From: Patellaria atrata CBS 101060
Taxonomy: Eukaryota
DNA: 64,000 nucleotides
Assembly: GCA_010093705.1 (NCBI GenBank)
Contig: MU006090.1
Location: 1,267,817 to 1,331,816 of the forward strand
Reading direction: 5' to 3'
A program made the position numbers and the translations under genes. Below the pieces are notes generated by a model. The model worked only from the letters and a program-made list of their open reading frames with translations, searched no databases and was not told where the DNA came from. Each line of letters starts with the position of its first letter. Position 1 is the stretch's first letter. This document shows positions 20,511-42,271 of this stretch, piece by piece.

Positions 20511-20598
20511 TTCGGATACCGGGAGTCGAACCCGGCTCTACCCGGTGCAATCCATTATAAATGAAAGCGGGTGATGCTAACCGATACACCATATCCGA
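20511..20598 (-). tRNA. tRNA-Glu(TTC) with a 16-nt intron
   Basis: Minus strand: TCGGATA acceptor pairs with TATCCGA; anticodon arm ACCCG-CT-TTC-A-[TTTATAATGGATTGCA]-C-CGGGT; T arm CCGGG-TTCGACT-CCCGG; followed by T-run terminator. Confidence 0.97.
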
Positions 20599-35933: not shown

Positions 35934-36234
35934 GGAAGACTGGACGGAGGGGTATGAGTGTGGAGGATATTGAAATGGGGAGGCAAAGAATTCCCATTGC
36001 ATTTTGCATTTCAGGTCGCTCTGATAAGAGGGGAAGCGATTTCGTCATCTTGGGTCCAAGGGCGTCCATTGTATCTTACACATCGAAAAAGAAATGCTCA
36101 TGATTGATAATTAAGGTCTCTCTCCACGTGATGTGATGCTTTTAACCCGCTTTCTTCGTGATCGTATAGCTCGGGCATGCATGGATATAGGTCTACAATA
36201 CTCTTACACACAAGCAAACTATACGATTGCACAA

Positions 36235-37311
36235 TTACAGGCCGACCGCCATTTCCTTCTTCACCTCTCCTTTTTGGATATTAGGCTCCTCCCTCACAAT
36301 ACCCTCTTGCTGCAAACCTGTCTTCTTAGATGCATCTACCGTCTTTCCCGCATCCTGCAGCAATGCCTTCAACCCCCTAACCAAAAACTCCTTCTCATCA
36401 TCTTGAGCATCCCCGCTGCCCGCCCATCTAATCTTACAATCTTGATCGATGAGATACACATACCCGACGAGCGGATTCAAATATCCAATATCCAACCTCA
36501 GCCGATCCGTAATCCCCTTCTTCAACATGAAATACTTATCATGCCTCTCCTTCTCCACTAAGCGTCTGATCCTCCCGGCCGACATCCTCAAAACGAGCCA
36601 CTTGACCCAATTCTCCTCCACATTGACATCAACCCTCTGCGTGACATCCCCATATTTCGCCAACAGCTCCTCGACCTCCGGATTCTGCCTCTCCCCCCTC
36701 CCTACAAACGTCCCCACCTGCTCATCCGCCCAATGCTGCGAGTACAAGCACAACACCGTAATCTTGCCCCTCAGCACAGGCGTCGTATCGCGCTTCTTCC
36801 CGCGCGACGCCAGCGTGACCCCGTGCAAGTTGGGGAAATACAGCGCATACGAGGAGCGGAAGATGCGCGGGTTCGCGAAGAACGACTTCCCCCGGTGGTG
36901 GCGCAGGTCGGCGTAGTCCTGGAAATAGCTCCGCGTCGCTTCACGTGCGAGCTTGTGCCGCTTCTCGCGGATCTCGTCTTCGCTCAGCTTCTTCCATACG
37001 ACTTCCTTCTCCCCTGTGTTTTGGCCGGCGCGCGGCGGGAATTGTTGGCCTATTGGCCGGCCGAGGACGGAGGGGGTGAAGTTGCCGCCTTGGGGCGTCG
37101 GGATTGGAGGGCGTGGACCGGGGTTTGGACGTAGGTCTTTGACTTTGCGGTTGGGTTTTGTGGGTTGGGCTGAGGTGGGAGAGGAGAACATTGGTGTGGA
37201 GGTGAGGAGACGTGCGTGTTGGAGAGATGTCCGGGAGGGACATTGAGGGTATGATGCTATTCGATAGCATGTCGAGAGAGTGGTTTGTAGGGGCTTTCGT
37301 GGTTGAAGCAT
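36235..37311 (-). CDS. ATP10: Mitochondrial ATP synthase assembly factor Atp10
   Basis: Presequence-like N-terminus, LGRPIG, GKSFFANPRIFR..ALYFPNLHGVTL, VNVEENWVK, VGYVYLIDQDCKIRWAGSG; upstream in-frame start at 37419 also possible. Confidence 0.92.
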   Translation of the reverse strand: MLQPRKPLQTTLSTCYRIASYPQCPSRTSLQHARLLTSTPMFSSPTSAQPTKPNRKVKDLRPNPGPRPPIPTPQGGNFTPSVLGRPIGQQFPPRAGQNTGEKEVVWKKLSEDEIREKRHKLAREATRSYFQDYADLRHHRGKSFFANPRIFRSSYALYFPNLHGVTLASRGKKRDTTPVLRGKITVLCLYSQHWADEQVGTFVGRGERQNPEVEELLAKYGDVTQRVDVNVEENWVKWLVLRMSAGRIRRLVEKERHDKYFMLKKGITDRLRLDIGYLNPLVGYVYLIDQDCKIRWAGSGDAQDDEKEFLVRGLKALLQDAGKTVDASKKTGLQQEGIVREEPNIQKGEVKKEMAVGL

Positions 37312-37538
37312 TGTTGTGGGTGATTTGATGAATATCTTATTACTCTTTTGGGGTGATGTTGCGGAGCTCGGGAGAGAAGTCTTGGAAATTTTGGGATGAC
37401 ATCGATAACAGAGATCCACCCCTCAGCTTTCAAACATCACCGCCAACATCAAGATTTTGATAACAGCGAATTATACTGGCTGAGCACGAAACTGGGAATC
37501 ATAAAAGACATATCAAAACCCCGAAAAAATATCCCCAA

Positions 37539-37991
37539 ATGTCCGCAGACGCCCTTCCAATAACCCCCGCTCGCTTCGCCGCTGCCCTCCCCGACCTCTC
37601 CCTCGCCTCCCTCTACGCCAAAGCTGCCGAACTACGAAACAGCATCGCACACCTACAATCCTCGAATTCCCAGTTAGAGCCCTTTGCGATCGATGGCGAC
37701 GTCGACTGCTATGAGGCCATACAGGAGAACAAGGTTGTGATTGAGAGGATGTTAGAAAGGATTGAGTTGCTGAAGAGGGAGGTTGAGGAGAGGGGAGTCA
37801 GGTGGGTTGAGCCGGGCGAGGGGAACAAGGAGGAGGATGTGAATGGGACCGCTGAGGGAGGGGATAGGGCGGCAGAGGGCCGCGAAGGAGGGGAGACGAG
37901 AGCGGATGGTGCGGGAGGGGCAAGAGAAAGGGAGCAGCGGCAGAATGGCGAGAGTCAGCAAAGGGAGGAGGATGATGGAGTATTCCTGTGA
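37539..37991 (+). CDS. Tma17/Adc17-like small coiled-coil protein
   Basis: PITPARFAAAL..LS...L.....ELRNSIAHLQSSN..L and AIQENKVVIERMLERIELLKREVEERG resemble the Tma17/Adc17 pattern (recognised from memory). Confidence 0.65.
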   Translation: MSADALPITPARFAAALPDLSLASLYAKAAELRNSIAHLQSSNSQLEPFAIDGDVDCYEAIQENKVVIERMLERIELLKREVEERGVRWVEPGEGNKEEDVNGTAEGGDRAAEGREGGETRADGAGGAREREQRQNGESQQREEDDGVFL

Positions 37992-38677
37992 AGCTGAGAG
38001 ATGGCATCTCTGACTACACAGATCTTGTAAGAGCCTCAAATAAGGGGTGGATGAGCCCCGATTGTGTTCTACACTCTCCGGTCCAAACGAGGCGCGGCAG
38101 GAGAATCTTGATGATAAACGACAAAACAGGTGTGCTAGCTCAAAATCTAAACTGCAGAATGTCGCGACCTGCCATATTCAGGGAGAAGAAATGTTAGGTT
38201 CTCTGGAGCTGGGAATATCTTTCTGCATGTATGTATCTGCATTTCTAGACGGGAGCTCATTACTGACCTAATCTAGATGCACAACTGTCTCTCTCCTCGT
38301 GAATGCTTTGCTATTGGTTTCGTACCACCCGGTTACAGAGTTAGTAGTGACGACAAATTTCACAAAAGCAATACTTTGGCTTGTACTTAGGTAAGAATTG
38401 TTGATGGTTAGGGGTACAATTGGGGAGGGTTATAACTTACTAGAAATAATAACTATATCTTTCTGCCTATCACTAAATCCTGTGTTTCAACATTGCCTAA
38501 CAACTACTTCTAGTATATCGTCTCCAGTCATCCCAGCCACATCAACTTCCACCACGTCCTCATCCGCATTCAATAGAAGGTCAAAAAAGAGAAAAGAAAA
38601 AAAAAAACAACCATAAATATATAGAAAACCAAAAACAGAAAGTGCGGAGATTTCTCTTTTCATTTTTTTTTTAAAAT

Positions 38678-38799
38678 AAAAAGGTTTTTCCGCCGTCGTG
38701 ACTTAAGTTGGTGTTGACGGGATTCGAAATTAGACTGTAAGGAAATTGGATAGGATAGCCCACAAAGGAGAAACCGATAGCAACTGCACCACGGCGGAA
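38678..38799 (-). ncRNA. Candidate Pol III-type structured non-coding RNA (tRNA-like ends, long hairpin)
   Basis: 13-bp closing stem (38688-38700 with 38787-38799, one mismatch), A-box-like TGGTGCAGTTGC, B-box-like TTTCGAATCCC, T5 run just downstream on the minus strand; family not recognised. Confidence 0.5.
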
Positions 38800-39270
38800 C
38801 GGGAGAGCGGTCACTGCGAGGTGAATATAAAATAAGGACTTATCGCGGGATTGGGAAGTGAGGTGTGAGGAGGCTTTTCCTCCGTGGTTGTACGCTTTCT
38901 GTACACACAACGGGATACCTTGTTATTTCGCTATCCTTTCTTTCACGTGTCTATAGGGCTAAATCCAACCACTTATTTAATCATAGGCGGACGGGAAGAT
39001 AGTGACAACGTGATAATGGAGGGACTTCTATGTCTCTACAAGTTCTATTTTCATACAATATCATACCCCTATCCACATCTAAATGCCCCCTGCATCACTG
39101 CTTCATATCTCTAACCACACTGGGTATATCGGCCTCTCTCATCTCTCCCATGATAGCCACCTCTCACTTCCCCAGTAAATCCGTGCAAACCAAAACGCCG
39201 CCGCTATGTTCCATCGCATCATTAACAAAAGCTAGAATAACCAAAGGGTAGCCAACTAAATCGAAGATGC

Positions 39271-41593
39271 TTACAGCTCCCAAGCCCCATCCCCTTCTAT
39301 TTCAGCCTCTTTCCCGCTAAATTCCTTCTCAATATCCTCCGGATCAATCGTACTAACGAATGCTCGTCTAACGAATGTGAACCACACCTTAGTCCCCTTT
39401 CTATGTTTCTTATGCTTTTTCTTTTTCTTCTTCTTCTCTGCTTCCACGTTCTCATCCCCATCCGCTTCAGCTTGAGCCTCAGTATCGTCATTCCCGCTGT
39501 CATCACCACCGTCTTCCGCATTTGACTTTATTTGGTTATCGACCTTGAAAGCTCCAATCTTACTCGCCAACTCAATATAACTCCTCACTGTTAAATCCCT
39601 TAATCCATACACCTTATCCTTCCTGGTATCATACTCGACTTCAAATTTAAACGACTTTGGATGGTGTTTCTTATGCTTCCCCGGCTCCTTCCCGTGGTGT
39701 TTACCCTCCCTCCATCGCTGCCCAGTAAGCTCATTTTCGGCTTTGGACTCAGCTAGGTCGGAGAAGTTGGTTAAAGAGTACTCAGATGAGAAGTCAGGCT
39801 GAGGAGGGGTATTATGGAAGTCGTTATTGATGTATGTCAGATTGGCAAAATACTGAGTGTAACTGAGTAGGGAGAGTGTTTGGGGTGAGTAAGCGGGTCC
39901 GGGAGGTGAGGATTTGGTAGGTGGTGAGGGGACGATGAATTTGTGCTTCCTAGGTCTCTTTCCCTTCGGTCTAGAGTGCTTTTTTCTGTGGGCGAGGGAA
40001 TCCGGATCTTCGTCTATGTGAAGATCGTTCCGGTCGGCGTTCACGTTCCGCTGGATTAGAGGAGCTTGAGGTAATTTCGGAGATGATGCCAGGCGTGGTC
40101 GTGAAAGAATGACATCCTCGAGGCCGGTGACGTTGTATTCGAAGATGCGGTAGGTAGGGAAGTAATTTGGGACGACACTTGGTGAGACATGGGAGACGCT
40201 GTAGCGTTCGGCATGTTCGCCCCCGATCTTATCAAGAAACTTCTTTCTTCTCTCTCTTTTGCCACCTTTTCTAAAGTATTCAAGGAATGATTGCCAAGGC
40301 GATAAGACCTCCTTTTCGTGTAACTTTGGTGGGTCAGGGAGTTTGGACCATATCTTTCTAAGATCAAGGAGATAATCGCTTGCACTGGCAATAGATATCA
40401 TGTCCTCCTTAGGGGTACGCTCAGTTTTCAGTGTCAACCCGTCCCCAGGCATCATACCATCTCTAACCGACTTCTTGACTTTGTGGAAATCCTGTAACAT
40501 GAAGTGATCGATGTTCATGTGTCCGTAGAAAGTGCCAATGATAATGTCCCGATACTGGTGCATCCAAAGTGTATATTTCTGCCAGCAAGTTTCGTCCCAA
40601 CTCTTCTTATTCTTAGTCCTTGCTGGTGGTACATGGCCAATGAGCAAAGCCTTCATACCTCGGTCACGTAGAAACTGTAGCTGAATGCGCAGCCATTCCA
40701 TATGCTCATATCCGGGTTCTTTCCTATCTGCACATCCATCCGTTGCAGAGTTTGAATCGAAGAAATATCTGACCACGTCAGCATTAGACTACCTACACCT
40801 TCAGATGCCTACTCACAATGTGTTCAAACTAAAAATAGCCAGTTTGTCCGGAATAGCCTCGACATAAAACCATCCACCCCTAACAAACTGATGCCTCTGC
40901 TCCTCCGGAATAAAATTCTTCCAGATATGCAAATACTTCTCCGTCCACTTATTCGGCCCCTGCGAAAAGATATTGTGCGGCAAGATGTCATTGTTTCCAA
41001 ACGTCGGCACAATCGGCACGATGAAGTCATTCGTCGGATCTGTATCATTGATATTGTCCTGTTTGCCAAACACTCGTACAAACTGCTCGACTAGCATCTC
41101 ATTCTGCTCCACTACCTGTGTTTCGCTCCGTGGTATGTTTTCATCGTTATCATGCCGTGCCGAGTCACCGGTCCATAGGACGAAATCGATGCTGTCTTTG
41201 ACCTCCTTGTCTAACCAATCGAAGACGGCGTCGACTAGTTTGAGGGGAGTGTCGCAACTTGACGTCTCTGCGCCAAAGGCTCCTGCAGGGCCGGACCCTC
41301 GATGACAGGCATGGTTCGCATCGGTCGAGGAGTGTTTCTTGTAGTACGGATCCGGATGAACATCTAGAATACCCGTTGAGGTTAGATATGAAACTTTAAG
41401 AGATACCTTAAGTATAACTACCCGTGATGTGTAGAAATCTACCGTGCAACTTTCTCTCACCCCGCGTGCTCGAAGCTCCTGTATTTCCAACTCTGGTCCC
41501 TGACGTTGTTGGTGGCTCGCCAAAACCATCTCCAGCTGTAGCGCAAGTAGCGGTAGCCAGGTATAGAAGAGCTACCTCTGTTGCAAGCCGCAT
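39271..41593 (-). CDS. PPN1: Vacuolar endopolyphosphatase Ppn1; 3 exons
   Basis: Signal-like N-terminus, LHGRFLHIT|DVHPDPYY, FVLWTGDSARHDND, FGNNDILPHN, LLIGHVPP, YGHMNIDHF, SPSVVPNYFPTYRIFEY. Confidence 0.95.
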
Positions 41594-42271
41594 CTTCTAA
41601 ATAAACAGAAGAGATATACTTTCGTATGAGAGAAATGCACAATCAAAAAGGATCTGAAATGTCAGCAGCCATCAAGGTGTACAGTTAGCAGGTGTGTCAC
41701 TGTGACGCTAGCACGATGAGCACGAGTCGTCAATCGACTTGTGATTGGCCAACCTTTCGTCCGGAGAATCCTTTTGCACAATTATTCTGGCACTTTGAGG
41801 ATTTGAGGATAACATGGACATAGGTAGTAATGATTGTATATCAAAAGGACTTTAGCAAGACATCGTGGAGGAGAGGGTATTCAAAGTATAGATAATAGTC
41901 TTTTTTAACTACATCCCCTTTTTAACTATCGCACAGCTAAATACCGCGCTACGTAGCTATGGACAGAAAAGACAGAATGAACATGATGATATGTCTCGAA
42001 AGGCCAACTTCCAAACCTGGCTCTTCCTTGAACAATCAGCGCCGCCAAATGCTGAATGATGCACACGCTCTCCTATGGACCGGACATGTATATCCCAGAA
42101 AACTCCTCCCGATGTGTAGACGTGCCCACCTTACTTGTAGAAACCCAGGACCAAGACCTGGACCCAAAGACGCCGATGCTATGCTCAAATGCCAGAAACT
42201 CATGTCATACCGAAGAGCGAACACTTCTATGATGAATGCATGAAACATCAAGCGCTGCTAAAACTTTCATA

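Follow-up and report, generated by a model that had tools for sequence, protein, structure and literature searches.

A 113-nt hairpin with tRNA-like ends, read on the minus strand in a gap between two convergent ORFs, is a member of a dispersed family with at least five copies in the genome, located at distinct single-copy loci. We consider, with moderate confidence, that the copy found in the window (the whole 64-kb stretch of DNA that was analyzed) would be a decayed representative of a SINE-like Pol III repeat that derives from a tRNA and is low in copy number, an interpretation drawn from comparison of the sequences. The family is multi-copy, small and dispersed, its copies have a non-tRNA interior in common, and the boxes of the paralogues are better than those of the window copy.

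The gap that harbors the element lacks any ORF of at least 80 aa between positions 38039 and 39271 (~1.28 kb according to the ORF list). It is bounded by the end of the gene of a 150-aa protein at 37991 on the plus strand and by the end of a 501-aa ORF at 39271 on the minus strand, hence converging 3′ ends. GC content ranges from 0.35 to 0.49 in the gap versus 0.43 to 0.64 in the flanking genes, in agreement with an earlier reading of this locus made from the letters alone (hereafter the sequence-only reading), which had described the gap as gene-free and AT-rich. A Pfam search of the neighboring proteins returned a sole match, ATP10, for 36238-37419. A homologue search with the 150-aa protein revealed no close relative, the best others being 51-71% identical over 59-100% of the query; its named homologues come from Xylographa, Loxospora and Pleosporales. 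Within the gap, the hairpin with tRNA-like ends is real, extending from 38798 to 38686 on the minus strand (TCCGCCG ... CGGCGGA, read directly), and each of the motifs previously described is present at its place when the minus strand is read. The element and its parts are the following.

38798-38792, minus strand: TCCGCCG, 5′ end of the hairpin (sequence reading)
38692-38686, minus strand: CGGCGGA, 3′ end of the hairpin, then A (sequence reading)
38791-38781, minus strand: A-box-like TGGTGCAGTTG, at position +8 (sequence reading and motif search)
38729-38719, minus strand: B-box-like TTTCGAATCCC (sequence reading and motif search)
38682-38678, minus strand: T5 run, a possible Pol III terminator (sequence reading)
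38835-38826, minus strand: TATA-like TTATTTTATA, −37 to −28 from the first T of the hairpin (sequence reading)
38787-38799, minus strand: 5′ arm of the closing inverted repeat, 13 nt (inverted-repeat search, pair I8)
38688-38700, minus strand: 3′ arm of the closing inverted repeat, 13 nt (inverted-repeat search, pair I8)
38709-38790, minus strand: inner body in tRNA register, 82 nt, GGTGCAG ... CAACACC-A (by eye)
38696-38708, minus strand: 13 extra nt of the 3′ arm, with no counterpart in paralogue record 2 (by-eye comparison with its overhang)
38738-38771, minus strand: core common to four other contigs, the matches reaching at most 38718-38785 (contig alignment)
38680-38827, minus strand: candidate full repeat unit, 148 nt, if an 8-mer found in both flanks is a target-site duplication (flank word search)

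The search for copies relied on DNA contigs from two sequencing runs (X1 and X2, from one sample of one study, which may be the source of the reference assembly) aligned on positions 36000-42000. A home contig of 15.5 kb with a depth of 321.9 spans the whole 6 kb with no differences and no joints, which indicates that the runs are DNA of the source organism. Seven X1 records were obtained at the locus: the home contig, two at an unrelated segment (39407-39442), and four that match only inside the element, as listed below.

Record 2: contig of 23875 nt, depth 322.9, matching 38718-38771 with 4 other letters
Record 3: contig of 28833 nt, depth 320.3, matching 38732-38771 with 1 other letter and TTT inserted behind 38745
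Record 4: contig of 24335 nt, depth 323.2, matching 38738-38785 with 7 other letters
Record 5: contig of 9370 nt, depth 331, matching 38739-38771 with 3 other letters

In these four records the core match covers 33-54 nt at 85-97% likeness (1-7 other letters), the flanks are unlike those of the window on both sides, and the depth (320-331) is about that of the home contig; the overhangs in X2 are the same as in X1. The sequence-only reading had proposed an undescribed Pol III RNA; as a single undescribed gene it does not survive the finding of at least four further dispersed copies in the same genome, and that interpretation is only partly supported. No second copy was detected within the 64-kb window by blastn-short or nhmmer. 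Local alignment of the element with the rest of the gap gave marginal scores, reached in the four comparisons by 6, 90, 142 and 21 of 200 shuffles. A metagenome scan with an A-box/TCTCC/B-box pattern yielded eight loci, all unrelated and none a family member: seven carry nearly the same tRNA, canonical in appearance and with a long extra arm, and the eighth is a GC-rich chance match. Likewise, a literature search with four short motifs of the element found nothing related by title or abstract, among the matches listed.

Several other segments of the region deserve mention. Positions 38872-38889 on the minus strand, ~80 nt upstream of the hairpin, are identical at 15 of 18 positions to the 3′ end of the element (ACGACGGCGGAAAAACCT), a likeness that may be due to chance or mark where an older tandem copy ended. 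On the plus strand, the 14 nt at 38308-38321 are 93% complementary to 38770-38783 (inverted-repeat pair I4) and correspond to the element's TTGCTATCGGTTTC with one transition, in opposite orientation, where a rough estimate gives ~0.3 such cases expected by chance. In X2, the assembly of 38074-38561 breaks into short contigs and low-depth variant contigs occur there (7-24 versus 330-500, with 3-4 other letters; records 9, 12 and 14), which may be minor variants or sequencing error near A/T runs. The 36 nt at 39407-39442, inside the 501-aa ORF, match another contig with 5 other letters and a 31-nt contig of depth 1750 (records 6 and 7), probably as a coding repeat of low complexity.

None of the motifs individually exceeds chance level and only the fold stands out; considered alone, the element is barely above chance. 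B-box-like sites with at most 2 mismatches number 27 in the 64-kb window versus 31.4 expected. The closing arms, 92% complementary over 13 nt, form the window's only GC-rich 13-nt inverted repeat of its kind and are nevertheless within chance range: such repeats with at most 1 mismatch and a spacing of 40-130 nt occur twice in the window versus a mean of 4.0 in 20 block shuffles, and once versus 1.85 when a GC filter is applied. The predicted RNA fold is an irregular hairpin with a minimum free energy of −30.1 kcal/mol and a z-score of −2.72, and 1 of 200 shuffles folds as well. It reproduces the long irregular hairpin proposed earlier, including its AGUUG/CAACU and CGG/CCG pairs. A chance hairpin with chance motifs in an AT-rich spacer would agree with the frequency of each motif alone, but it is in effect refuted, and we regard it as highly improbable: chance does not explain the element, given that four further contigs of this genome carry its core at 85-97% likeness, together with related flanking motifs.

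We next consider the relation of the element to tRNA genes and to known RNA families. Using Rfam 15, cmscan gave no match at the gathering threshold for the whole 64-kb window, and no tRNA (RF00005) match at E up to 10 for 901 nt and 138 nt around the element, where weak chance-level matches only were seen. ARAGORN found a sole gene in the window, at 20511-20598, and none at the element. With introns allowed, it reported no gene in the 301-nt minus-strand stretch 38900-38600 at default, -ps80 or -ps70 settings; at -ps60 it called only a tRNA-Arg(gcg) of 75 bases, rich in AT, which occupies 210-288 of the stretch and lies downstream of the element. The absence of a tRNA or Rfam match indicates that the element is not a working tRNA. 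By ARAGORN and Rfam it lacks a D, anticodon or T stem and thus has no cloverleaf, so that two points of the sequence-only reading hold: the interior does not fold as a tRNA, as no ARAGORN call falls on the element and RF00005 does not match it, and the element belongs to no known family, none of the three cmscan runs having assigned it to one. Other candidates were considered and dropped, namely a tRNA with a long canonical intron (TCTCC has no anticodon-stem partner), a selenocysteine tRNA, a plus-strand tRNA, and a snoRNA (C/D or H/ACA boxes were not seen by eye).

The gene at 20511-20598 on the minus strand, 88 nt long, encodes a true tRNA; it contains a 16-nt intron and has a TATA-like run upstream and a T7 downstream, and Rfam did not report it at gathering score. 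ARAGORN assigns it to Asn(att) without introns and to Ala(tgc) with introns (intron 33/34), and a canonical 37/38 intron placed by eye leads to anticodon TTC (Glu). TGGTG followed by TATCGGTT forms a contiguous 13-mer in this tRNA at 20577-20589 (minus strand), which in the element (38775-38791, minus strand) is split by CAGTTGC; this likeness may point to the type of the parent tRNA, or chance may account for it.

The paralogues were compared with the window copy by eye from their overhangs (30 letters per contig end, among the rows listed), using a 5′ consensus of three contigs that has an agreement of 0.66 and in which copies may be mixed. The 5′ overhangs contain TGGTG(C/T)AGTTG. The 5′ consensus consists of a 7-nt arm and then TGGTGTAGTTGG, and the 5′ side of record 4 of a 7-nt arm that differs from the window's by transitions only and then TGGTGCAGTT. 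On the 3′ side, two overhangs carry ACAGTCTA, three bases, and then GTTCGATTC or GTTCGAATC (a GTTCGA(A/T)TC box), after which come 5 + 7 nt ending in CACC-A or CGCC-G. In record 2, the 3′ side reads CCCG, 8 bases ending in CACC-G, directly CGGCGGAA, five more bases and a T7 located at the place matching the T5 run of the window. As read from these overhangs, homology covers the whole hairpin including the T run, beyond the core. In every visible copy the pyrimidine-rich core is present and just 3 nt separate the core stem from the TTCGA loop, which leaves no 5′ strand for a T stem. This shared non-tRNA interior indicates that the family spread after cloverleaf loss and does not consist of independently decayed tRNA genes. 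The recurrence of the A-box-like, B-box-like and T-run features in the paralogues makes a tRNA-derived, Pol III-type origin reasonable. The suggested tRNA origin is inferred from short motifs and their spacing read by eye, and cmscan at E up to 10 on the 138 nt detected no homology.

The copies differ at positions expected to matter for a promoter. The base before TTCGA is T in the window copy versus G in two paralogues, and the A-box region reads AGTTGC in the window versus AGTTGG in the 5′ consensus (TGGTGCAGTTG followed by C versus G). The window copy is thus a worse match than its paralogues to the A- and B-box consensus motifs, and looks like a more decayed member of the family at Pol III promoter positions; judging from its sequence, it is probably weakly transcribed or silent. 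Indels of 3, 4, 13 and 14 nt separate the copies, stem regions included. Among these are the TTT inserted behind 38745 in one copy and the 13 nt at 38708-38696 that are absent from record 2.

Both types of difference bear on a less likely possibility, namely that the copies are working Pol III genes forming a family specific to this lineage. Each would give a long-hairpin RNA of ~110-130 nt derived from a tRNA, which RNase P/Z and Dicer might process into small RNAs resembling milRNAs. Two bases kept in the paralogues, the G that precedes TTCGA and the second G in AGTTGG, are lost from the window copy, and the indels reach into stem regions, which argues against this possibility. On the other hand, the A-box-like, B-box-like and T-run features recur, with T5 and T7 at the same relative place in two copies, a TATA-like run lies upstream as it does at the true tRNA gene at 20598, and the fold of the window copy has a z-score of −2.72. 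The 3′ arm of record 2 would also form a perfect 13-bp stem (at most 16 bp with G-U pairs) against a 5′ arm like that of the window, and milRNAs made by Pol III, one of them from a tRNA precursor, are reported in Neurospora (PMC3547838). A related reading, which we judge unlikely, is a family of at least five Pol III genes, specific to a poorly sampled lineage of Pezizomycotina, in which compensatory changes between subfamilies would maintain the stem, the outer stem being GCCG/CGGC in one case and TAGT/ACTA in the other. The tRNA would then have been remodeled into a hairpin by leader-trailer pairing, and the RNA could be a small-RNA precursor or another structured RNA.

The spacing of the 3′ half suggests how two registers may coexist in the element. 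After the TTCGAAT loop come 5 + 7 + 1 nt that end in CACC-A, spaced as at the 3′ end of a tRNA, and the same arrangement is found in three paralogue overhangs. By eye, GGTG at 38790 pairs with CACC, and the ends of the inner body pair at 5 of 7 positions in the window and at 6 of 7 for two paralogue combinations. Given this inner tRNA-like register, the outer TCCGCCG/CGGCGGA pairing would be that of a leader against a trailer. In record 2 the trailer comes directly after the discriminator, and, provided that its 5′ side is like that of the window, the stem would run without a break for as many as 16 bp. The 13 extra bases of the window copy (38708-38696) resemble the 3′ acceptor strand, as though it had been duplicated and had then diverged. 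In the window copy, CACCAACT is the exact complement of 8 bases in the consensus 5′ arm of the other copies, which may point to a duplication or to the trace of an older trailer.

The ends of the unit were examined in the flanks of the window copy and of record 4. Over the 5′ arm and the 10 nt upstream of it, record 4 and the window are identical at 21 of 26 positions, and all five differences are transitions. The outermost 7-mer of record 4, TTCACCT, recurs in the window at 38825-38819, 14 nt further upstream than if it were collinear; the leader of the window copy has probably gained 14 nt by insertion. This likeness upstream of the arm indicates that the repeat unit begins upstream of the hairpin (38798). 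The longest word common to both flanks is the 8-mer TTATTTTA, at 38835-38828 and 38679-38672, in AT-rich flanks where 20 of 500 shuffles share an 8-mer. It is a weak candidate for a target-site duplication around a 148-nt unit, 38827-38680. If so, the putative TATA box would be largely duplicated AT-rich target, and two bases of the T5 run would belong to the target as well, with the same weak support. Inside the unit we found no A-rich or LINE-like tail: it ends in the T run, and an A10 run lies beyond the candidate duplication. Dispersed copies with target-site duplications were one of the outcomes that the sequence-only reading had named as contrary to its own proposal; the copies exist (at least four further), and the flanking duplications are weakly indicated.

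These ends are also informative as to how the copies may have spread. Relics of a tRNA pseudogene could have been distributed by segmental or ectopic duplication at the DNA level together with their flanks, without being mobile. This explanation, which we find rather unlikely, accounts for the homology of record 4 upstream of the tRNA-like start, for its differences in the 5′ arm and upstream being transitions only, for the low copy number (at least five), and for the weak same-strand echo of the element's 3′ end at ~38889-38872, whose score is reached by 6 of 200 shuffles. However, the shared part is very short, the contigs diverge within tens of bases and have single-copy depth, so that insertion of a short unit fits better, and blastn and nhmmer found no second copy in the 64-kb window. 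An inserted short unit could instead be a MITE or foldback DNA transposon, with the 13-nt arms as terminal inverted repeats and the tRNA-like motifs incidental. A 113-nt unit closed by a 13-nt inverted repeat, of a size typical of MITEs, in a multi-copy and dispersed family, would be in line with this. It is nonetheless quite unlikely in our view, as homology with record 4 does not stop at the arm but extends upstream for 10 nt or more, probably for 27 nt, no direct repeat adjoins the arms (CCCG and AAAC lie directly outside them), and the candidate 148-nt unit has no inverted ends.

We therefore favor the SINE-like Pol III repeat. Several observations run against it. Two or more copies seem to retain the closing stem, others possibly with a different sequence, which would not be needed in a neutral retroposon. 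There is no LINE-like or A-rich tail and the duplication is weak, an 8-mer being shared in 20 of 500 shuffles. Neither sequence homology to tRNA, at E up to 10 on 138 nt, nor a copy outside this genome, in the metagenome scan, was found. A tRNA origin, Pol III transcription, retroposition and decay of the window copy are the inferred components of this model. The family would have descended from a tRNA gene, through an ancestor in which the internal Pol III promoter of a tRNA with its A and B boxes, the pairing between the 5′ and 3′ ends and a terminator T run persisted. By then this ancestor would have been without pairing in the D and T stems and would have contained a pyrimidine-rich core of foreign origin. 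Its spread was most likely SINE-like: a LINE-type enzyme would have reverse-transcribed a Pol III transcript, running from the internal boxes to the T run, and inserted the product into AT-rich DNA. The copy that came to lie in the convergent 3′-3′ intergenic gap of the window would later have undergone substitutions in both promoter boxes and gained extra bases in its leader and 3′ arm. According to this model, the hairpin would be the legacy of tRNA acceptor pairing, lengthened by a complementary leader and trailer, and duplicated AT-rich target may by itself account for the "TATA box" and for some of the "terminator".

More generally, a fungal spacer sequence that looked convincingly like a new Pol III gene belongs to a small repeat family, which calls for caution regarding promoter-like motifs observed at one locus. 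The resemblance of the element to tRNA genes and pseudogenes (RF00005) comprises 7-nt complementary ends, TGGTG.AGTTG at +8, the TTCGAAT loop followed by 5 + 7 + 1 nt, and an upstream TATA-like run with a downstream T run, as at the intron-bearing tRNA gene 20511-20598; unlike them, it has no D, anticodon or T stem and no ARAGORN or RF00005 match. Fungal MITEs such as guest of Neurospora and mimp of Fusarium, which measure ~100-200 nt, carry terminal inverted repeats and are dispersed, resemble the element in these respects, whereas homology in the present family passes the inverted repeat and no duplication adjoins it.

In Neurospora, milRNAs made by Pol III are reported, milR-4 coming from a tRNA precursor (PMC3547838). 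Like the milR-4 locus, the element may be a Pol III unit combining a tRNA-like part with a hairpin; unlike it, the hairpin here is itself the tRNA-like part, is multi-copy and is known from sequence alone. If the copies were working genes, a tRNA would have turned into a multi-copy hairpin RNA gene in fungi, which bears on the origin of Pol III-milRNA loci. AfuSINE2 of Aspergillus fumigatus is tRNA-related, 140-493 bp long, present in 1-5 copies and flanked by direct repeats of 4-14 bp (PMC5063351). No likeness was seen by eye between the element and the AfuSINE2 sequences given in Table 1 of PMC5063351. AfuSINE2 also has a long tRNA-unrelated body (PMC5063351), in contrast to the element, which measures ~113-148 nt, ends soon after the B box without a tail, and has ends that pair into a 13-bp stem, unlike those of AfuSINE2. 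The two are alike in their low copy number and in gene-rich insertion. The tRNA-related head of AfuSINE2 with Pol III A- and B-box-like motifs (PMC5063351) has a putative counterpart in the element, and its flanking direct repeats of 4-14 bp have a possible one in the candidate 8-mer. If it is indeed a tRNA-derived short repeat, the element would thus be a compact, tail-less, hairpin-forming addition to the few SINE-like elements of filamentous fungi.
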